Positions 47,334 through 56,961 are shown, counted from the stretch's first letter. The stretch: 64,000 nt of DNA from Acidobacteriota bacterium (GCA_965263035.1 OZ253580.1:4960001-5024000), one strand, 5' to 3'. Made by a program: numbers and translations. Notes: generated from the letters alone by a model not told the origin.

Positions 47334-47392
47334 ACATTTTCTGAGAGGATGTGCGGGTCCTGCTTCCCGGGGACCGATGGGAAGAGAAGCAC

Positions 47393-49348
47393 ATGATTCT
47401 GGCTCAATCCGTCTGGCTGGGACTGCATTGGGTGGACTGGATCGTCCTGATGGTCTACCTGCTAGCCGTCTCCTTCATCGGATTCTGGTCCTACCGGAAG
47501 GTGCGGGATCTCACCGACTTCTTCATGGGGGGACGCCGCTTCGGCAAGGTCTTCATGATGTTCTTCGCCTTCGGGGTCGGAACCAGCAGCGAGCAGGCTC
47601 TCAGCGTCGCCGCCGGGTCCTTCCGCTATGGTCTGGCCGGAATCTGGTACCAGTTTCTATGGCTCTGGGCCACACCCTTCTACTGGATCATCGCTCCCGT
47701 CTTTCGCCGCATGCGGGCCTTGACCACCAGCGACTTCTTCCAGGCCCGTTACGATTCTTCCACCGCCACGCTCTATTCGTGCCTGGGGATCGCCATGTCC
47801 GTGGTCTTCATGGCGGGAGCCCTGTACGGCAGCGGGGAGATGATCGAAGGCCTTGCGGGAGGCACCGACCCGGCGACGGGAGAGCCTTATTTCCCAATGG
47901 AATATGCCGTCGCCGGGATGACGGTTCTCTTCGTCCTCTATGGGATGGCCGGAGGTCTGGGCGCCGCCATCATCACCGACTTCATCCAGGGTGTCCTGAC
48001 CATCGTCTTCTCGTTCCTGCTCCTCCCCTTCGCCTTTCACGCCGCGGCCCGGGTGGCCGGAACCTCCAGCGGATTCTCGGCGCTACAACAGGGGGTTCCA
48101 GGCCGGAGCGGCTCCGAGCTGTTGAGCCTCACGATCACGGAGGAGGTCAGCAGCCTGATGGGGCAGGAGCCCATCACCCTCTTCTATGTGGTGATGCTCT
48201 CTCTCACCGGGCTCATCGGAATCGTGGTCCAGCCTCACATCATGGGAGTCTGCGGGGCCGGCCGGACCGAGTTCGAGGGGCGGTTCGGCTTCACCGTAGG
48301 CAACTTCATCAAGCGGTTCTGCACCATCGCCTGGACCTTCACCGGGCTGGCCTGCATCATCATCTATCTGACGCCCGAGAACGGGTACCTGTCGGCGGCC
48401 GAGATCCAGCGGGTCCAGTCGGATCCCGGTGCGCTGGCCGCCTTCGCCAACCAGGTTTTCGGGCGGGCCGCGCACGACATTCTTCCCACCATATCGGTCG
48501 GCCTCGTGGGACTGCTTATGGCTTCACTGCTGGCGGCGGTGATGAGCACCTGCGATGCCCAGATGGTGGTGGGGTCCGGACTCTTCACCGAGAACATATA
48601 CAAACGCTTCATCCATCCCCGGGGCAGTGGGCATCACTATCTGTGGGTCGGACGCCTGAGCGGCCTGGGGATCGTTTGCCTGGCGCTGCTGATGCTGACC
48701 CAGTTCGACAACGTGATTCAGGTCCTGACTCGTTACATCCAGCCCATCCCCACCTTCATGGGCCTGGCCTTCTGGTTCGGTATCACCTGGCGAGGCTACA
48801 CGGCCATGGCGGTCTGGGCCTCCACCATTACCACAGCTCTGGCCTGGTACCTGACCCAGATTCACAATCCGTTCGAGATCATCGCCGCCCTGGGCAGCTC
48901 CCAGTTCTTCCAACTCAACATCGACTACCTTCCCGGCCTGGTTCGAGGCTGGCTCTACGAGCAGGTCCCCGGAATCATGCAGGTGGCGCAGGGGGCGGGA
49001 GGCGAAGTAGCCTACCGGACCCGCCTTCCCTACCAGATTCTCGTCTATCTCTCATTCGGCGCGGCGGCCGGTCTGGGCACCAGCTTTCTGACCCGGCCCG
49101 TCGCCCGGGCCAAGTTGGACCGTTTCTTCCGTCTCATCCACACTCCGGTCCGGGAGGGCGAAAAGATCGACGAGCCTTGTACCCTCCCGGAGAACCCCTT
49201 GCCGCCTGAGACCGAAAAGTTGATTTCCGCGGGCGGACTGGAGATTCCTCGTCCGGGCGTGGTGGGGCTGGTCGGATTCGGACTGGCCTGGGTCGCGGTG
49301 GGAGGCTTGATCTGGCTCACCGTAACGCTGGCCGGGATCGGCGGGTAG
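47393..49348 (+). CDS. Sodium:solute symporter family protein
   Basis: Many transmembrane segments; DFFMGGRRFG, GGLGAAIITDFIQG, LLAAVMST. Confidence 0.9.
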   Translation: MILAQSVWLGLHWVDWIVLMVYLLAVSFIGFWSYRKVRDLTDFFMGGRRFGKVFMMFFAFGVGTSSEQALSVAAGSFRYGLAGIWYQFLWLWATPFYWIIAPVFRRMRALTTSDFFQARYDSSTATLYSCLGIAMSVVFMAGALYGSGEMIEGLAGGTDPATGEPYFPMEYAVAGMTVLFVLYGMAGGLGAAIITDFIQGVLTIVFSFLLLPFAFHAAARVAGTSSGFSALQQGVPGRSGSELLSLTITEEVSSLMGQEPITLFYVVMLSLTGLIGIVVQPHIMGVCGAGRTEFEGRFGFTVGNFIKRFCTIAWTFTGLACIIIYLTPENGYLSAAEIQRVQSDPGALAAFANQVFGRAAHDILPTISVGLVGLLMASLLAAVMSTCDAQMVVGSGLFTENIYKRFIHPRGSGHHYLWVGRLSGLGIVCLALLMLTQFDNVIQVLTRYIQPIPTFMGLAFWFGITWRGYTAMAVWASTITTALAWYLTQIHNPFEIIAALGSSQFFQLNIDYLPGLVRGWLYEQVPGIMQVAQGAGGEVAYRTRLPYQILVYLSFGAAAGLGTSFLTRPVARAKLDRFFRLIHTPVREGEKIDEPCTLPENPLPPETEKLISAGGLEIPRPGVVGLVGFGLAWVAVGGLIWLTVTLAGIGG

Positions 49349-49355
49349 GCTGCCT

Positions 49356-49374
49356 GGAGGGGCGATTTCCAATC
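49356..49374 (+). repeat. Left half of a split REP hairpin with att core GATTTCCAATC (49364-49374)
   Basis: GGAGGGGC-GATTTCCAATC; joined to GCCC after 55625 it gives the perfect hairpin GGGCGATT-TCC-AATCGCCC. Confidence 0.8.
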
Positions 49375-49480
49375 CCAACTGTCCCTCAGTCAATAACTAC
49401 TAAACATTAACGTTTTCAGTCATTTACCGGGTTCTTCGCCGAATCGGTAAAGTGGTTGACTCCCCATGTTTGGCGTGCTG

Positions 49481-49499
49481 AACAGGCAACAAACAGGCA
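49481..49499 (+). promoter_or_regulatory. Putative integrase arm-type site pair (left)
   Basis: AACAGGCA-ACA-AACAGGCA, identical to 55499-55517. Confidence 0.7.
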
Positions 49500-49907
49500 G
49501 CAGAATTCGCGCCTGAAGGCCAATGCACTCTTCTCATCTTCTTTTGTTCCCCTTTCGAAAATCTACCAGAGATTCGACTCATCGATCCGATGGCCAGACC
49601 CATAACCTGAATCATGGGATTTTCGGAGGCATCTTCCGAGTCAAGAGTATCTTCCCTATCCGCTGCCGTGTGGTCCCCTGGATATGGCCTGGAGATTGAA
49701 CCGATGGATTACGGTGTACCACCCCGAAGAAGCACTTTATCCGCCGCCCGGGGTTTACATGGGCAACAGCAAGCGTGCTCGGGAGAGATTCCGGGCCGCG
49801 TTGTTGGACCAGTCGCGCCTCTGCCGTAGACTCGCCAGCATCGCTCATGGTCCGCAACTCCGTAAGAGGGTATGCTATACGGAAGAGAACCCATGCAAAA
49901 CTAATTC

Positions 49908-50120
49908 ATGGCGGTCACCGTTCCAATCGGCATTGCCATCATCATGGCTACCATCGCCCTCGCCGGCCTCATCCAGGTCCAATCCCGCGCCTTCCGTTCT
50001 GAGCTTCGGGAGTCGGCCCAGCACCGCGCCGAGCTCCGGGATCGAATGGGACGGATCGAAGGGACGCTCGACGTCCTTCGAGATTCCTTCGTCCGGTCCG
50101 GTCGCGACACTGCGGGGTGA
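49908..50120 (+). CDS. Small membrane-anchored coiled-coil protein
   Basis: N-terminal hydrophobic helix followed by ELRDRMGRIEGTLDVL. Confidence 0.6.
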   Translation: MAVTVPIGIAIIMATIALAGLIQVQSRAFRSELRESAQHRAELRDRMGRIEGTLDVLRDSFVRSGRDTAG

Positions 50121-50537
50121 TCCACAACGCTGAACCATGGAAGAAGCGAACGGCCCCCAGCCGGTGGCGACAAGCGAGACACAAATGAGCTGGTTGCGGA
50201 GAATATGGAGCACGATAACGGTCCTGATTCGACTAAGTGACCTTGACGCACGAGTCGGAAAGCTCGATAGGCAACTCAGAGAAGCGTCCCGGGGGACTCA
50301 GGAGACTCTCAACATTGGCTCAATTGGTACGCTGGACATCGACATCGAAAACATCACCCGTGAAACGATCACTCAGCAGGCCAAATTGGAGGTAACGAGG
50401 CGTCACATCTATACATCAAACGTCGCCCATACGGGACACGCTGTCGGGTTGTCATTGGCGTTGTGCTACAGCTTTGAAGATGAACCGGAACGACTTGAGC
50501 GAGTTGCGGACCGGCTTGAAGAGTGGGCCAATAGCTA

Positions 50538-52187
50538 GTTCTCATCCAGAAAGTCGGGTTTGGGGGGATTGGGTAGCCCGAGGAAGGCCGGAGAAACTGC
50601 AATAAACCGGCTCGATGGGGGCCGAAAGCAGGAAATTCAAGTCCGTTGAGAGCCGATCCCGGATTTTGAAGACACGAGTCCCTGACGGGGCATCGGCAAT
50701 GGATTCAAGCTGCGCTTACAGCAGCAGGCGGGCCAGCACCAGCAGGTTGAAGCTGACGATCGAGAGGTACACATATTGCTGGAAGTGGGGCCAGCCCTTC
50801 CAGGTGCAGCGTCCGAGTCCGAACACTCGCTTGAGCCACGAGATGCACCCTTCGATGCCGGCCCGGAAGCGTCGCAGTTGCCGGTAGACCCAACTGGAGC
50901 GCACCATCTCAGGGACCTTCAGTCCGCGTTTCTTGGCAAAGGCGACATCCTGGACGCCTTGCTTTTTGGCCCACTCCAGATTGGAGCGGCTGGCAAAGCA
51001 TCCGTCACAACTGACCTGTCGAGGCCAACGGCCGTACAGATCATACTGGCGCCGCATCCAGGGCTGGAACTGACCGGCATCGTTAGGGTTCCCCCGCACC
51101 ACCTCAGCATCCAGCATCAGGCCGGAGACGCCGCCGGTCAGAAACAGCTTGTGCCCAAAGACCGTTTCCCGGCGCTTCTTTTTGATGATGTCGGTGTGCT
51201 CCTCAAACAAGGAGAGGACTTTCTCGGCGGCCGGAACCGTCTCTCCCCGCAGCACACGCCGCTCGGTCTGGTCGATGATCTTCTTCGTCAAATCCAAGTA
51301 ATGGCGCAGTTGACCGGCGATGACCAGACTGGGCAGGTCGGTGAACCGATCCGCTTGCCGCAGCGCCCTCTCGGCGTCATGAGCGGTCTTGCGAGCGACC
51401 TTCAACAGATCCCGATAGGCTCGCAGACGACGCTTGCCCCGGTGGTTGGCGATGTTCGCAACAGCGTCGCTTGGCCCGGCGCCGGTGATCCGAAAAGACG
51501 ATCTTGTGAGGTCGGGCCAAGCGGCGCAGCCAGCGGGTGAGGACTCGAACCGAGTCGGACAACATCTGGGAATCCCGCGGATAGGGGATGGGGCTTTCCA
51601 CGGCCGTGGCATCGGCTCGGATCTTCCGTCCCCGTTCCAGTCCCTGGCCCTCCGCCCATTGCACCAGGAGCCGGTTGATCTGCTGCCAGGTTCCGGCTTG
51701 AATCCGGCTGATGTTGTCCTGGAGGCAGGAGGCACTGGGGGTCCATTGCCAAGGGAGTCGAGCGAAGCGACGAAAGCTCTGAGAGTCGCTCCAGAGGAAC
51801 GCCAACTTGGTGTAGGGCAGCTGATGCCAGTTCTTGAGGATGGCCGCGCGCAGGACCTGCTCTGCGGAGAGACCCGGAGCCCCCTGGCCTGAACCGGCGG
51901 TGTCACACAGATCGTGTAGAACCAGACCCAGGATCGAGGGGTTGTCATCCAAGATCTTGGAAACAGCTTTCAATTCCTGGGCGAGTCGGTGACCGGGCCA
52001 GAGCCCGGAGAGCGGAAGCTGGTTTTCCCGTTTTCGACGCATTGTTCAAGCCCCCGGTTTTGTGTAAGTCATTTGGTTGCTTTTATTTAGCACCAATAGA
52101 CTACCAAACGACTATGACAGAATCGGGGCTTGAAAATGCCTCCTTAGTCCTTATTTCCCAATAACTTACGGCTTTCCGGATGAGAAC
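50538..52187 (-). mobile_element. IS element (ISNCY/IS5-like DDE), 1650 bp
   Basis: Inverted repeats GTTCTCATCCAGAAAG / CTTTCCGGATGAGAAC; 6-bp TSD TAGCTA at 50532-50537 and 52188-52193. Confidence 0.92.
50716..52042 (-). pseudogene. Frameshifted DDE transposase
   Basis: N-terminal half (MRRKRENQ...RADATAVESPIPYPRDS) and C-terminal half (EKVLSLFEEHTDII, FGHK, DGCF, FRAGIEGCIS.LKR) are in different frames, switching near 51460. Confidence 0.85.
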
Positions 52188-52403
52188 TAGCTACACTACG
52201 CTTTGGCGGGAGACGGAAACGACTCCCGCGTTTGAGAAAATGGGATTGTCAGAGGAGTCCAAGCAGAGATTGCGTGACCAGAGGTTAGTGCATGAGATGG
52301 GAGTCCGGTCTGTGTCCGCGTGGATTCGAGGCTGGGTACGCGCTCAGCAGAAATAACGCACCGAGATCCGCGAGGATCCGCCTCGCGAAGATAGTGAGAT
52401 CCT

Positions 52404-52769
52404 TCAGAGGAACGAGGTCAGGTCTTGCCCCAACTTTCGGGCCAGTGCTTCGGCATCGTCAAAAGGCCAGAGAAGTTTCTGGTCTCCATCCCGGTCGCGT
52501 TTCTCATGCAGAACCCAGCCGCGACTTTCCAAGTCCAGGCCGGGAGGTACCATGACATGAACACCCTGCGTCTTGCGGACAAACATCTTGACCAGTTTTG
52601 CTGATTCCGATTTCGTGATGAGAGGGTAAAAAGGAGCAGGAACGTCCATGCTCACTCTCGCCTTGATGGGAGTGATCCAGACTCCCCTGCACCTTGGTGG
52701 CAGTTCTGCCCGGACAATCTTCATCAGTTCCTCCAGTTGACTGAGCACGTTGTTCCAGTCCAGTTTCAT
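52404..52769 (-). CDS. Hypothetical protein
   Basis: AAGGAGG RBS before ATG 52769; 121 aa. Confidence 0.6.
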   Translation of the reverse strand: MKLDWNNVLSQLEELMKIVRAELPPRCRGVWITPIKARVSMDVPAPFYPLITKSESAKLVKMFVRKTQGVHVMVPPGLDLESRGWVLHEKRDRDGDQKLLWPFDDAEALARKLGQDLTSFL

Positions 52770-52849
52770 GGGGCCTCCTTACGGCTTATGATGGAGTGAA
52801 TCCGCCCGGCTCGTGATGCCTCCAGAGCCGGTGGGTCCGAGTCGCCACA

Positions 52850-53428
52850 ATGACGCTCAGCCGGGAGCCGAACTCAGGAGGGCATCATCATCTCGGTGGT
52901 CCTCCCGGCAGCATATCGCCGGCAAGGTTCCAGCTTCAAGGACCGTGGCCTCAGAACATAGAGGTGATGTACACCGCTCCGGACGCCTCGGGACTGGTCG
53001 AGCAGCTTGCCACGTTCGATTCAGGCACTGTGGATTACGATTACAACAACGTCATGATCCAAGGTCTGGTCGAATTGACCGGGAATGCTCATATCAAGAT
53101 CATTCACAATGACCCATACCATCCGAAGGTCCACTACGGAACTCCGGCTATGCTGCAAGGCATCAGGGAGCTGGCCAAGGCTTTCTTCAACACGTACAAC
53201 AAGAAGGTCGAGGTCAACGACATGAGCCTCCCAAGAGGTGGGCTGTTCGACTACAACGGCAACTGGGTGCCACCGCATCAAACGCACCGCACCGGCATAA
53301 ATGCGGACATCCAAACTCGCAACGTGAGCGAGACGGAGAGGGCGTATCTCAAGGCGAAAGGAGAGGAGCTTGGATTCAGGATGCTCCACGAAGATGATCC
53401 GCCTCATTTTCACGTCACCCTTTTGTGA
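52850..53428 (+). CDS. MepA-like (LAS-type) murein endopeptidase domain protein, possibly 5'-truncated
   Basis: YGTP, NDMSLPRGG, HQTHRTGINAD (Hx6D) and terminal HFH zinc ligands. Confidence 0.75.
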   Translation: MTLSREPNSGGHHHLGGPPGSISPARFQLQGPWPQNIEVMYTAPDASGLVEQLATFDSGTVDYDYNNVMIQGLVELTGNAHIKIIHNDPYHPKVHYGTPAMLQGIRELAKAFFNTYNKKVEVNDMSLPRGGLFDYNGNWVPPHQTHRTGINADIQTRNVSETERAYLKAKGEELGFRMLHEDDPPHFHVTLL

Positions 53429-53457
53429 CTGAGAGCTGAACCGTAGGATGTGAGACT

Positions 53458-53946
53458 ATGAAACTGCTGCCGCTGTTGACACTATTACTGCTGCCGGTGC
53501 ACCAAGATGACGTCGTGCTCCTGTCACCAATGGAGTTCGAACACGCGCCCTTGGAAGTTCGCGAACAACTCACCGAAATGGGCTGCTCCATACCCCAAGT
53601 CTCCGATTTGTATGAGGAGAGAGAACACAACATCATCTCCGGTCAGTTCGCTACACCAGAGCAAACAGACTGGGCCGCGATCTGTTACAAAGACGGAAAA
53701 TCGGCAGTTGTCGTGTTGTGGGGCGGCCCGGTGAATTGCAGGTCGTGGATAAATGCTCCACGGAAAGGCTTCTGGATAGTGTTCGATCGCGTACTCTATA
53801 AATACCCGGCTTCGCGTAAGAGTCGGTATGGAGATGTTCCTGTAGTGCGAACACATGATGCAGTAAACTACGCTATCTGGGGGAGAGGAGCGATTGCTTA
53901 CTACTGCCACGAAGGAGAGTGGCTGGAGTTCATTACGTCGGACTAG
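53458..53946 (+). CDS. Exported hypothetical protein
   Basis: Signal peptide MKLLPLLTLLLLPVH; four Cys; AGGA upstream. Confidence 0.7.
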   Translation: MKLLPLLTLLLLPVHQDDVVLLSPMEFEHAPLEVREQLTEMGCSIPQVSDLYEEREHNIISGQFATPEQTDWAAICYKDGKSAVVVLWGGPVNCRSWINAPRKGFWIVFDRVLYKYPASRKSRYGDVPVVRTHDAVNYAIWGRGAIAYYCHEGEWLEFITSD

Positions 53947-53969
53947 CAACCAGCAGCAAGCAACACAAG

Positions 53970-54000
53970 AAAGGGTCGGCAGAAATGCCGGCCCTTTTTT
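53970..54000 (+). terminator. Intrinsic terminator
   Basis: AAAGGGTCGGC-AGAAAT-GCCGGCCCTTTTTT directly after the 52850-53946 gene pair. Confidence 0.8.
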
Positions 54001-54242
54001 GTCTGCGTAAAACCCATAAACTCAAGGGTTTACGAGCAGGAATATGTCATGGTCCGCTGTCCGCTCGTCCCCCGTTCCGCTGCACGGTTGCATCCCCTGT
54101 CCGCTGAAACGCTGGTCGGCTATGAAAACCACCCAGTCCTCCATCAACTGCCGGCCGCGCCTCCCTTGACCGCTTAGGGGGCGTCCGTGCATTCGGCCGC
54201 CCAGTCACCCTGATCCAGGTACCCAACCGGAGGCTTTTCAGC

Positions 54243-54470
54243 GTGGCCGCCGCAGCCCAGTATCTGGGCAAGGCCATCGGCACGATTCGCAAATTGGCCG
54301 TTCTGAACGTCATCCAAGCCAGAGCCGAACTGGACACTGCCGGGCGCCGCCGCCGCGTCTTCGCACTGGAGGTCTTGAACGCCTACATCGATTCCCTGGA
54401 GCCGTGGTACGATTCGCCCCACGGCGAAGAACCCGGATCCAGAAAGGAGGAGATGCATGGGCATCTATAA
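54243..54470 (+). CDS. Excisionase-like helix-turn-helix protein (true start probably further upstream)
   Basis: Frame is open upstream: RRLFSVAAAAQYLGKAIGTIRKL...RRVF..LNAYID; overlaps the integrase start. Confidence 0.7.
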   Translation: MAAAAQYLGKAIGTIRKLAVLNVIQARAELDTAGRRRRVFALEVLNAYIDSLEPWYDSPHGEEPGSRKEEMHGHL

Positions 54471-55542
54471 GGTGAAGGATCGCCGGGGGAGGAGACGATA
54501 CGTCGTCAGCAAGTACTGGCCGAACGGATCCGGTCGGCTCCGAATGTACGCCCCCAACTACCGGAGCGCACAGGCGCTTCAAACACGAATCGAGTCCAGC
54601 ATCCTGGACGGCACCTGGAAGCGGCTCAAGCAGGAACTCGCCGGCGGGAAACGCACCATCTGGACGGTGCACAGCTTCTACAAGCGTTTTCTCGAGGAGT
54701 ATTGCAAACCTCGTATGCGCTCCTGGCGGAGCTATGAGGGTTCGTTCAAGAGCCTCAATGCCATGCTCGGGAACATTCCCCTGAAGGAGTTCCAACGCAA
54801 AGACCTGCACCGCTACGTCGCCCAGAGGAAGAAACAGGTCAAACCGGCCACGGTGAACCGTGCCATCGCCGCTATCAGCAAGCTGTTTTCCTACGCGCTG
54901 GAGTGCGGGGAAGTGGACACGCACCCGCTGGTGCGGTTTCCCAAACTGAAGGAGCCGAAGAAGGTCTTCCGGCCTTTGACGGTTCAACAGTTCCGCGACC
55001 TGGTCGAGGCGGTGGACAATCCGTACCTGCAAGCCATGATCGCGGTGATCGGCGAGACGGGGATTCGGAAAGGCGAGGCTTTGTCGCTCACCTGGAAACG
55101 GGTGGATTTGGGTCGCGGACTACTCTGGGTGGAACTCACCAAGAACGACGAGACGAGGGAGATTCCCCTGTCGAAGTACGCCACCGAATACCTGGCCGGG
55201 CTGGTTCGCTACCTGAACATCCCATACGTCTTCGTCAACAGCCGGACGGGGACGAGATGGGTGAATCCCGACAAGCCTCTGCGCCGGGCCGCCGAGAGGG
55301 TGGGGCTGAAGGTCGGATTTCACGATCTGAGGCGATTCCGCTGCAGCCACTGGTTGATGCAGGGTGTGGACGTGAGAACCGTCCAGAAGCTGATGGGTCA
55401 CTCGGCCATCAGCACGACGATGCGCTACGCGGGGTACGTCAGTTCGCATGCGCTTGCCAGCATTCGGGAGGCACAGGCTCACGAAGACTCACAAACGCAA
55501 CAGGCAACAAACAGGCAATGGGTAGGAAACAAGGGGCAATGA
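54457..55542 (+). CDS. Tyrosine recombinase / phage integrase
   Basis: AAGGAGG RBS; KPATVNR; catalytic residues in TGIRKGE, TKN, FHDLRR, LMGH, TMRY. Confidence 0.95.
   Translation: MGIYKVKDRRGRRRYVVSKYWPNGSGRLRMYAPNYRSAQALQTRIESSILDGTWKRLKQELAGGKRTIWTVHSFYKRFLEEYCKPRMRSWRSYEGSFKSLNAMLGNIPLKEFQRKDLHRYVAQRKKQVKPATVNRAIAAISKLFSYALECGEVDTHPLVRFPKLKEPKKVFRPLTVQQFRDLVEAVDNPYLQAMIAVIGETGIRKGEALSLTWKRVDLGRGLLWVELTKNDETREIPLSKYATEYLAGLVRYLNIPYVFVNSRTGTRWVNPDKPLRRAAERVGLKVGFHDLRRFRCSHWLMQGVDVRTVQKLMGHSAISTTMRYAGYVSSHALASIREAQAHEDSQTQQATNRQWVGNKGQ
55499..55517 (+). promoter_or_regulatory. Putative integrase arm-type site pair (right)
   Basis: Identical to 49481-49499; an IHF-like site (TAACCTGTTGAAA, 55562-55574) lies between it and the core. 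Confidence 0.7.
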
Positions 55543-55614
55543 TTAGAGGGAATAATTGGGATAACCTGTTGAAACAAAAGGGCTGATCCCCTGTATTATC
55601 TAGACAGAGCAACG

Positions 55615-55692
55615 GATTTCCAATCGCCCATTCCTTCCCCGGTGGGCTCATGGACGCGATTTCGGAGTTCGGCGGTTGGAAACCGCCGCTCC
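55615..55692. repeat. Right att core plus remainder of a REP doublet (REPIN/BIME-like)
   Basis: GATTTCCAATC-GCCC, then an inverted partner at 55670-55692 reading GGAGCGGCGGTTTCCAACCGCCG on the minus strand, with the same GGAG foot and TTTCCAA apex. Confidence 0.8.
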
Positions 55693-56961
55693 TCAGGCGG
55701 CGATTCTTTCCGAATGGGCGTCCGATCCGGGACCGGTATCCGGCTCCCGGAAGACTCGCCAGAACACAAGGGCACACAGGGCCGTAATGACCGCGGGGAC
55801 GGCGAAGACGACATCGTAACGAGTCGTTTCGCCCACCGTAGCCACTTCCTTGAGCCAGCCCGAGAACAGGCTCCCGAGAAAGAGGCCGATGCCCAGGACC
55901 GCCACGTTGATCAGCGACTGGGCCGAAGCGCGGATGTCGGCCGGCGCCACCATGTCCGTGTAGATGAACGCCACCACAAAGAAGAAGACGTAGCAGAATC
56001 CGTGCAGGCTCAGTGAGCCCACGACGACCCAGACCAGCACCGGAGCGCTCTCGTACAGCGGCCAGGCGGCCGCGAAGATGACATACCGGACGGGCCAGGC
56101 CAGGATGCCCACCAGCATGGAGACTCGCACGCCCCAGCGGGAGAGGGCGTAGGGGAGGATCAGAGCCATGGTGAAGATCTCGGCGATCTGTCCGATGGTC
56201 ATCCAGGCAGGCAAATTCTCGGAGGTGATGCCCACCGCGGGACCGATGGTCTGAAGGTAGGGGAAGGTGAGGATGTAGTAGAGCTGGAGCTCGGTGGCCA
56301 CGACGAAGGCAATGATGAAAAAGCTGAGGTAGTTCCGGTCCTTGAGCAGCGCGAACGACTTTCGGAAGGCCAGGGGGTCCGGAGCCTCCCGAGAGGGAGG
56401 CGTGTGGGGAAGCGCCAGAGAGAAGAGGCCCAGGATCAGGGAAAAACCGGCCGCCAGGACGAAGGTGTCGATATAGCCGGCCGCCTCGGTGTCGAACAGG
56501 ACCCGCATCCCGGTCAGAGCCCAGTTGGCGCCGATCCAACCCAATGTGCCCCAGACTCGGATGGGACCGAAGTCCCGCTGTCCGTCGGCCAGATGCTGAA
56601 AGGCCAGTGCATTGGTCAGGGCCAGGGTGGGTGCGAAGACCAGACAGTACAGGAGCATCATGATCAACATGGCGCTCAGGGTCTCGGTGTAGGCCATCCA
56701 AAGCAGAAATCCCGCGCCCAGCAGATGAAAGATGGACAACGCCACCTGGGTAGGAAGCCAGCGGTCCGCCACCTGCCCTCCGGTGAACGGAGCCACCAGG
56801 TTGGCCAAGGGAAAGGCGGCGTAGATCAGTCCCAGACCCCATCCCGAGAACCCCAGTTGCACTTCCAGATACCCGGCCAGAGCCGGAGCCCAAGCCCCCC
56901 AGATGGCGTACTGCAGGAACATCATCAGGCCGAGCCGGGGATGGCTGAACATCCTTCTCAT
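55693..56961 (-). CDS. MFS nucleoside:H+ symporter family (NupG/XapB-like)
   Basis: LMMFLQYAIWGAW, GQVADRW, FGPIRVWGTLGWI, LPHTPP, IGQIAE, LHGFCYVFFFV, IRASAQ. Confidence 0.9.
   Translation of the reverse strand: MRRMFSHPRLGLMMFLQYAIWGAWAPALAGYLEVQLGFSGWGLGLIYAAFPLANLVAPFTGGQVADRWLPTQVALSIFHLLGAGFLLWMAYTETLSAMLIMMLLYCLVFAPTLALTNALAFQHLADGQRDFGPIRVWGTLGWIGANWALTGMRVLFDTEAAGYIDTFVLAAGFSLILGLFSLALPHTPPSREAPDPLAFRKSFALLKDRNYLSFFIIAFVVATELQLYYILTFPYLQTIGPAVGITSENLPAWMTIGQIAEIFTMALILPYALSRWGVRVSMLVGILAWPVRYVIFAAAWPLYESAPVLVWVVVGSLSLHGFCYVFFFVVAFIYTDMVAPADIRASAQSLINVAVLGIGLFLGSLFSGWLKEVATVGETTRYDVVFAVPAVITALCALVFWRVFREPDTGPGSDAHSERIAA

Follow-up and report, generated by a model that had tools for sequence, protein, structure and literature searches.

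A tyrosine-integrase islet in an Acidobacteriota chromosome whose probable attachment site is the loop of a REP hairpin

Integrase islands are normally sought at tRNA or tmRNA genes or at a few conserved genes, and an island that lies away from any tRNA gene raises the question of what its attachment site is. Such an island, 6,251 bp long and bearing a tyrosine integrase, is found in a 64,000-nucleotide stretch of the chromosome of an Acidobacteriota bacterium (hereafter the window, G000:C1:4960001-5024000, from a genome that is a single contig of 6.198 Mb with 62% G+C), where it splits a GGAG-footed hairpin of the repetitive extragenic palindromic (REP) kind. ARAGORN detected no tRNA gene in the window, and the island does not have its chromosomal attachment site (attB) in a tRNA gene, as tRNA-integrating islands do. 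In our view it is very probably an integrative islet, made of a lambda-type integrase, two attachment (att) arms and exchangeable cargo, that uses the loop region of a REP hairpin as its attachment site in the chromosome; we hold with similar assurance that REP loops are the natural attachment site of this integrase family.

The interrupted hairpin and its empty counterparts

A first, sequence-only reading of the window had proposed that an 11-bp repeat bounds the island, and GATTTCCAATC indeed stands at both ends, at 49364-49374 and 55615-55625. Directly 5' of the left copy lies GGAG-GGGC (49356-49363), and directly 3' of the right copy GCCC-ATTCC (55626-55634). When the island and one copy of the repeat are deleted, the sequence GGAG-GGGCGATTTCCAATCGCCC-ATTCC is rebuilt; the hairpin foreseen by that reading thus turns out to equal, in every letter, the commonest type-A REP of the genome. 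The left junction, attL (49356-49374, + strand), is composed of the GGAG foot (49356-49359) and the 5' stem and loop of the type-A REP, including the core copy, and matches the 5' half of 20 intact type-A REPs. The right junction, attR (55615-55634, + strand), consists of the other core copy followed by the 3' stem GCCC and the ATTCC tail, and is identical to the 3' half of the intact type-A REPs. The interrupted REP faces an intact type-B REP outside the element, CGGCGGTTGGAAACCGCCG plus CTCC (55670-55692, - strand; genome position 5015670), which ends one base before the stop codon of a gene for a NupG-like transporter. The two REPs form an inverted doublet that, as had been noticed, fills the gap between two convergent stop codons (49348 and 55693). 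The G+C content is 62-65% in the flanks and 52-61% in the island interior, and among the 286 RTTTCCAAY sites of the genome the ends of the island are the sole complementary pair of half-REPs visible.

The hairpin is one of many. Besides the interrupted copy, the genome holds 20 perfect copies of the exact type-A REP, 19 of them with the foot directly adjacent, and 95 hairpins centred on TTTCCAA with at least 4 further paired bases. Perfect hairpins with a GGAG foot number 1,445 in all and fall into 1,040 sequence types, the top ones with 19-46 copies each; the type-B partner has 46 footed copies, and in 8 further cases an A and a B REP face each other at a distance below 100 bp. The 17-mer core of the type-A REP, GGCGATTTCCAATCGCC, occurs 27, 79, 43, 27 and 58 times in five genomes of the genus, and the reversed pattern, used as a control, has 0 copies in the same genomes. 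These counts (20 further exact copies, 95 TTTCCAA hairpins and 27-79 core copies per genome in the genus) bear out the proposal that the target is a multicopy REP. The presence of many short extragenic palindromes per genome, some arranged as inverted doublets, is what is expected of REPs and of REP doublet forming hairpins (REPINs).

An open reading frame (ORF) of 127 aa that resembles a REP-associated tyrosine transposase (RAYT), with a Y1_Tnp domain and an HVH motif, was found at genome position 3478081-3478464 (L132:1447-1830). It has REP doublets on both sides, of the GGGGGAC and CGGGGG types (GGGGGACATCCTTGTCCCCC facing CGGGGGTTTTYAACCCCCG), which is the usual REP/RAYT arrangement. These REPs are of a subtype other than types A and B of the island, and no tie between the RAYT-like ORF and type-A/B REPs is established. 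A second Y1_Tnp match is present in a REP-dense region at genome position 2482924-2483100.

The sequence-only reading had predicted that relatives would carry the locus empty, and they do. The end of the symporter gene to the left of the island was located in all eight same-genus genomes. G007 and G006 have between the two transporter genes what the window would have without the island, including an intact type-A REP; G007 shows a single-base difference, which lies in the partner REP. The same REP with few changes is present at the locus in G001, G002, G003 and G004, and G005 keeps the REP with a different downstream region; in G008 a type-A REP is absent at this position. Because G007 and G006 hold exactly the rebuilt sequence between the same two genes, the arrangement of the junctions is not due to chance. 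In a public contig from run X19, too, 49363 is followed directly by 55615, and 11 bases at the joint could belong to either side. Run X12, which stems from another study, has contigs that cross both island junctions and join 50531 to 52188, so the X12 population has the island without the insertion sequence (IS) that is nested in the window copy.

The integrase and its sister elements

The integrase gene (54457-55542, + strand) has an intact reading frame of 361 aa and matches PF00589 and phrog_1 (E 1.7e-58). The PF00589 catalytic domain covers residues 174-325, with 94.9 bits against a cut-off of 27.1. Across 20 homologues R204, K229, R292, H315 and Y324 are invariant and H289 is nearly so, and these residues align with the motifs of solved Xer recombinases, including the XerC-like 4a8e; to judge from this alignment, the catalytic residues are intact. 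The NCBIfam scores lie below the cut-offs for XerC (101.5 bits against 335), XerD (91.9 against 330), XerA (105.9 against 220) and the integron integrases (68 against 265), and by these cut-offs the protein is neither a Xer recombinase nor an integron integrase. An AlphaFold model built from 20 homologues has a predicted local distance difference test score (pLDDT) of 85.7. Its N-terminal domain shows three strands (residues 2-7, 13-20 and 27-32) and a helix (35-51) with pLDDT of 82-89, and the top match of the model in the PDB is full-length lambda integrase, 1z1b (351 aligned columns, E 5.9e-14, template modelling score 0.62-0.64). As modelled, the protein is a lambda-type integrase of three domains, including a predicted arm-binding N-terminal domain; no Pfam arm-domain match was obtained at E<0.01. 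An RNA library of run X12 covers the integrase gene, which is not counted as expression since DNA may be present.

Matches to the integrase are abundant in related genomes. There are 28 in G004, of which 26 are full-length with 88-95% identity, and 11 in G005, with 8 full-length copies, while G007, G003, G006 and G008 have one or two each. We compared 40 integrase loci across genomes: four adjoin an intact tRNA-Arg gene, one runs off its contig, and the remaining 35 adjoin the 3' half of a REP. In all 35 visible non-tRNA right junctions the order is the same, namely a D-arm-like stretch, CGGA or CGGG, a 7-nt loop and the G+C-rich 3' half of the REP. A conserved left arm was found within 14 kb upstream at 28 of the 36 non-tRNA loci.

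Both junctions could be mapped in 27 sister elements. With the window island this gives 28 cases, and in all of them removal of the element rebuilds a perfect palindrome, whose stem measures at least 6 bp in 26 and at least 5 bp in 28 (range 5-11 bp). The GGAG foot or its complement was flagged by the script in 21 of the 28 and lies within the printed stem in five more; in L046 it stands just upstream, and in L058 it is absent. The identity between attL and attR extends over 7 bp in four elements, 10 in two, 11 in nine, 12 in one, 14 in five and 15 in seven. It covers the 7-nt loop in every mapped element, and in the four shortest cases it is restricted to the 7 nt TTTCCTA. A length that varies in this way fits site-specific recombination, as the junctions would have it, and not the duplication of a target of fixed size.

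The elements measure 2,684 to 15,122 bp, with 1.2 to 13 kb of cargo, and have in common a left arm of about 150-190 bp, the integrase gene with its upstream region, a right arm of about 115 bp, and nothing else. Two elements that are 100% identical over 2,782 bp occupy different REPs, which points to recent movement of the family; the elements may still be active today. The att cores of close homologues, which the sequence-only reading had left to be sorted into REPs and tRNA genes, lie in REPs in 35 of 35 cases for homologues of 88-95% identity, and in tRNA genes only at 85% identity or less. Together with the 28 rebuilt palindromes and the intact hairpin at this locus in relatives, this supports the attB that had been suggested, and the circle junction predicted at the same time agrees with the attP deduced from the element junctions. 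That reading had missed the tRNA-Arg ancestry of the site and the existence of a whole family with several REP-loop specificities.

Both arms are conserved. The left (P') arm (49375-49552, + strand), with a palindrome-bearing block at 49424-49450, is 80-92% identical to the left ends of 26 sister elements and is also homologous to the attL of the tRNA-Arg element of G003. It contains candidate arm-type integrase sites, two tandem 11-bp units of the AACAGGCA type (49481-49499, + strand), which form a 19-bp exact direct repeat of 55499-55517 (+ strand), the candidate sites of the right (P) arm, located within the last integrase codons. This 19-bp block stands about 115 bp to either side of the core and is kept in the arms of 26 of 26 aligned elements. 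The right-arm repeat encodes an ATNRQ stretch that is conserved in the C-terminal tail of the protein, where residues 352-361 have pLDDT below 50; conservation in a tail modelled as disordered would fit a constraint on the DNA. The X12 copy of the island lacks 11 nt at 49481-49491, exactly one unit of the tandem arm repeat, and the number of arm repeats therefore varies between populations.

The tRNA-Arg ancestry and the recognition of the site

The right arm ends in a relic of the 5' half of a tRNA-Arg gene, comprising the D arm and the 5' strand of the anticodon stem (55583-55616, + strand), with 24 of 35 positions equal to the 5' half of the tRNA-Arg(TCT) of G003. In 33 REP-type elements the 35 nt before the loop agree with the same half at a median of 25 positions (range 19-28), a count that leaves out four loci where the anchor pattern failed, and the differences are concentrated in the acceptor-stem bases. 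The four tRNA-type loci, one in G003 (85% integrase identity), one in G010 (73%) and two in G035 (72%), run into an intact tRNA-Arg gene (TCT or TCG) that has the same orientation as the integrase gene. A search within 14 kb did not find the left arm at any of the four, and that of G003 was later located about 47 kb away. At the far end of this element of about 47 kb, tRNA positions 1-42 are repeated with 100% identity on the same strand, and directly after the 42-nt repeat comes a homologue of the left arm found in REP-type elements, with both the TTACCGGGTTCTTCGCC block and the arm repeats. On the evidence of this repeat and of the homologous arm, one and the same element family uses tRNA-Arg, at its anticodon arm, in one species, and the loops of REPs in the others.

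More distant homologues (33-53% identity, from across the order) also adjoin tRNA-Arg, tRNA-Leu or tRNA-Asp genes, and a tRNA gene was present within the flank at 19 of the 25 distant-homologue loci scanned. We built a tree of 52 integrases by a quick method without bootstraps, leaving out L033, L073 and L083, which have stops or fewer than 300 aa. The 35 REP-type rows form one group, with a value of 94 in the Shimodaira-Hasegawa-like approximate likelihood ratio test, and this group is sister to the G003 element and then to the G010 and G035 elements, inside the users of tRNA-Arg and tRNA-Leu. Three subclades of the REP group correspond to the REP stem families GGGCGA, GGGGGAC and GGGGGT. The branching order indicates that the family swapped an ancestral tRNA landing site for a many-copy REP. 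In G035, the two elements L081 and L082 encode identical integrase proteins at two tRNA-Arg genes (TCT and TCG) in opposite orientation, and partial copies of the tRNA 5' half lie far from their expected positions; these misplaced copies suggest an inversion between the two elements.

These observations can be joined in a model of how the site would be used. In double-stranded form, a REP consists of a perfect palindrome with a short spacer at its centre. A recombinase core, with two inverted sites and a 7-bp overlap, is laid out in the same way, and so is the tRNA anticodon stem-loop, the site used by the nearest relatives of the family. The N-terminal domain of the integrase would bind the 11-bp repeats in both arms and assemble on an attP that spans about 300 bp. 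This complex would then capture a REP whose 7-nt loop equals the attP overlap, and strands would be exchanged at both borders of the loop, which would place the 5' half of the REP at attL and its 3' half at attR. An overlap of 7 bp is proposed because the minimal identity between attL and attR is exactly 7 bp in four elements.

Recognition of the same REP target as a folded single strand or an extruded cruciform, as in integron attC sites or in the action of XerCD on CTX-phage DNA, is a less favoured account, which we judge unlikely although not negligible. The target forms a perfect hairpin whose stem measures 5-11 bp, the attP core is an imperfect palindrome too, and the genome has a RAYT-like gene; REPs are processed as single-stranded hairpins by their Y1 transposases. 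Against this, the core of the elements is flanked on either side by long double-stranded arms that contain direct repeats, the structure modelled for the protein is that of a lambda-type integrase of three domains, the match of the protein to the integron-integrase family reaches 68 bits where 265 are required, and its relatives have as their target the anticodon-loop region of tRNA genes, which is a classical duplex core site.

It is very unlikely that the insertion was a one-off event at a secondary site, in which an integrase whose true target is tRNA-Arg slipped into a REP that resembles an anticodon arm. Relatives at 72-85% identity do lie at tRNA-Arg, the element retains the relic of the tRNA 5' half, and G000 has one full copy only. 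Yet in the clade of 88-100% identity all 35 right junctions and all 28 fully mapped elements are in REPs and none is in a tRNA gene, which contradicts such a slip. Moreover, the attP overlap has the sequence of the REP loop, TTTCCAA, whereas the anticodon loop reads CTTCTAA or CTTCGAA, the tRNA relic is without acceptor-stem bases, and the same island is present at the same REP in runs from other studies. That the half-palindromes belong to the element, a target-duplicating transposon with terminal repeats of which REPs are the solo footprints, is scarcely credible: the GGGGACTGTTAGTCCCC variant is more often occupied than intact in G004 and is rare or absent in genomes without matching elements, but intact REPs stand at the orthologous site in genomes without the island, REPs far outnumber elements (hundreds against one in G000), none of the element cores corresponds to the most abundant REP types, the identity at the junctions ranges over 7-15 bp and is not fixed, the sole conserved enzyme is a tyrosine recombinase, a class of enzymes that leave no footprint, and a REP-flanked RAYT offers the usual route for the spread of REPs, so that this explanation is contradicted for the type-A REPs.

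Several points count against our preferred reading, that REP loops are the attachment site. No product of recombination has been observed, and recombination itself is inferred from sequence. The X19 contig comes from another strain (8 differences in 230 nt), and it therefore records a presence/absence polymorphism of the island and gives no evidence of excision. The circle junction (backward joint) was not found in the contigs of four runs, which are uninformative on excision because contigs drop rare forms. At 8 of the 36 non-tRNA loci (L045, L047, L050, L061, L069, L075, L077 and L078) there is no left arm within 14 kb. An excisionase was not recognised by Pfam, NCBIfam and PHROG searches of the island or in the ORF listing of the minimal elements, and the minimal elements of 2.7 kb have no conserved ORF besides the integrase gene. 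A structured non-coding module that 25 of the 26 other elements compared possess is missing from the window island. The sister genomes were assembled from metagenomes, two of them with an estimated contamination of 8%. G000 has one occupied REP of this type against 20 intact ones, plus a decayed integrase remnant. This second copy (genome position 4175994-4176978; L002, L003) is about 90% identical, with about 300 bp deleted and 163 bp inserted, and its right arm adjoins a half-hairpin with a GACTTTCAGTC loop; given that loop, it appears to be the remnant of an element with another REP specificity.

A last point concerns the loops themselves: REPs at orthologous loci in sister species carry loops other than the occupied ones, and either fast REP turnover or a tolerance of mismatches, which is outside the model, is therefore needed. 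At one REP locus, G005 is occupied (L071, loop TTTCTAG), G007 has the left end of an element (L140, TTTCCAA) and G000 is empty with a third loop (L141, TTTCCAG). Exact empty sites for two sister elements were not found at orthologous loci, where the REP arrays are too divergent between species; those arrays contain REPs that share the stem family but not the loop, and a third query matched mainly repeats. Of the REP variant GGGGACTGTTAGTCCCC, G004 has 8 copies that are intact and about 16 that are occupied, and some near-identical elements have reverse-complement loops (e.g. L062 and L066, with 97% identity). Fast turnover of the REPs or exchange of the overlap by the elements may lie behind these differences. 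We put forward, tentatively and with more doubt than conviction, that the 7-nt loop is both the overlap and the main determinant of specificity, and that the family forms a natural series of integrases with changed targets, in which three stem families carry at least nine loop variants and new specificities arise through swap or inversion of the attP overlap. If so, the elements may imprint their overlap on the REPs that they visit, islets and REPs would diversify together, and an integrase of the anticodon-arm type could be moved to any short palindrome with little change in the protein.

Island contents and comparison with known systems

The host genes on either side lie outside the element. 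To the left is a sodium:solute symporter gene (47351-49348, + strand; PF00474, E 8.8e-30) and to the right a gene for a NupG-like nucleoside:H+ symporter (55693-56961, - strand; PF03825, E 1.7e-98). Inside the island, the left arm is followed by variable cargo without a recognisable gene and without a match to sister elements (49553-50531). Next comes the nested IS (50532-52193, - strand), of the ISNCY type, with 25-bp terminal inverted repeats and a transposase (DUF772 plus DDE_Tnp_1) that is split in two frames and matches NF033593 (E 1.6e-74). Three copies more than 99% identical to it are present elsewhere in the genome, despite the split transposase. The X12 island is without this IS, which is therefore a secondary and recent insertion.

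A second stretch of variable cargo (52194-54342) has three ORFs. The first (52404-52769, - strand) has no family; the second (52850-53428) has a weak match to murein endopeptidase M74 (PF03411, E 2e-08; NF006947, E 2.8e-08, far below the cut-off); and the third (53458-53946), with a hydrophobic N-terminus, has no family. This weak match excepted, no Pfam, NCBIfam or PHROG family was found for the cargo ORFs, and positions 52330-52849 are the sole part of this stretch that matches any sister element (L073 alone). Genes for replication or packaging were not recognised in the island or in the minimal elements by Pfam, NCBIfam and PHROG searches and the ORF listing. A conserved region 5' of the integrase gene (54343-54456, + strand) holds one copy of a 15-bp exact inverted repeat, at 54422-54436 just upstream of the start codon; the other copy, at 49427-49441 in the left arm, is kept in all sister elements. 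This repeat may be a regulatory binding site, for which it is a candidate. Rfam gave no match at E<=0.1 on the island, and on one minimal sister element a single match at chance level (27.4 bits against a gathering score of 53.1).

The non-coding module of the other elements measures 340-435 bp (e.g. positions ~437-871 of L052), and partial copies lie in G000 at genome positions 2699320-2699452 and 115616-115756. It has no codon periodicity, with 51, 53 and 51 variable columns by phase, and for this reason it provides no candidate for an excisionase. A long nested hairpin is predicted in it, with 40 pairs and a consensus energy of -76.6; three pairs have changes on both sides, and 19 of 960 cells are broken. 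The module could serve as an origin of transfer or of replication, or be an RNA.

The presence of a transposase in the island, and the use of REPs as targets, could recall the REP-targeting IS. In the text available of the survey of Tobes and Pareja (2006, PMC1525189), these include IS1397 and ISKpn1 of the IS3 family and IS621, ISPpu9, ISPpu10 and ISPa11 of the IS110 family. The portion of that survey accessible to us covers five IS families (IS3, IS110, IS4, IS256 and IS5) and names no tyrosine recombinase. As for those IS, REPs would offer the elements many-copy and harmless intergenic landing sites. The DDE transposase of the island is part of the nested IS and is absent from the X12 copy, and a tyrosine integrase is the sole gene common to all copies, which rules out that the island is itself such an IS. 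Unlike the REP-targeting IS so described, which depend on DDE or DEDD transposases, the elements have a tyrosine integrase and up to 13 kb of cargo, and their specificity appears to lie in the overlap sequence of attP.

Imperfect palindromes present several times per replicon and recombined by a tyrosine recombinase are known from the attC sites of integrons and the pdif modules of Acinetobacter plasmids. Those sites are part of the cassettes or are Xer sites, on which IntI or the host XerCD acts. Each of the elements reported here, in contrast, brings its own integrase, and its sites are pre-existing REPs of the host.

The tycheposons of Prochlorococcus, in the part of their description available (10.1101/2020.12.28.424599), have tRNA-specific tyrosine recombinases for seven tRNA or tmRNA genes, with an average of 1-2 elements per genome. 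Like them, as far as that part goes, the elements are small and combine an integrase with exchangeable cargo, and tycheposon integrases cluster by target much as the subclades do here. Unlike them, the elements use REP loops, and neither the island nor the minimal elements showed a recognisable gene for replication or packaging.

The closest parallel is found in the islands that use the anticodon loop of tRNA genes. Williams is said to have set out in 2002 a scheme of sublocations for integrase sites within tRNA genes. The accessible text of a later study gives the anticodon loop and the T loop, sublocations with flanking symmetry, as known integrase targets, and reports that 19 bp around the anticodon loop sufficed for ICEAfe1 (10.1101/2020.11.02.365908). 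The elements resemble such islands in the three domains of a lambda-type integrase, in the repeated arm sites and in a short palindromic core around a 7-nt loop, and the G003 member of the family is itself a user of tRNA-Arg with a 42-nt repeat, as anticodon-loop islands are. They differ in that they target a non-coding extragenic repeat present tens of times per genome, in that the tRNA part of attP is only a relic, and in a copy number of up to 26 per genome. A change of attachment site is thus captured with both states in one genus, by integrases that are 85-95% identical, by shared arms and by a fossil tRNA half in attP, and this supports the view that what integrases read is a small symmetric site shaped like a stem-loop, and not the tRNA itself.

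In the literature covered, which left most subscription journals and supplements outside, no tyrosine integrase with a REP as attB was found, and island finders built on the rule of tRNA, tmRNA or conserved genes would miss a class that targets REPs. A REP target means tens of neutral intergenic landing sites per genome, which would explain how one chromosome can have 26 copies of a cargo-carrying integrase element, a number otherwise typical of insertion sequences. REPs are also marked out as hot spots of gene flux in this uncultured lineage of Acidobacteriota, and the natural loop variants are material for testing the specificity of overlap and core and for tools that integrate at many sites.

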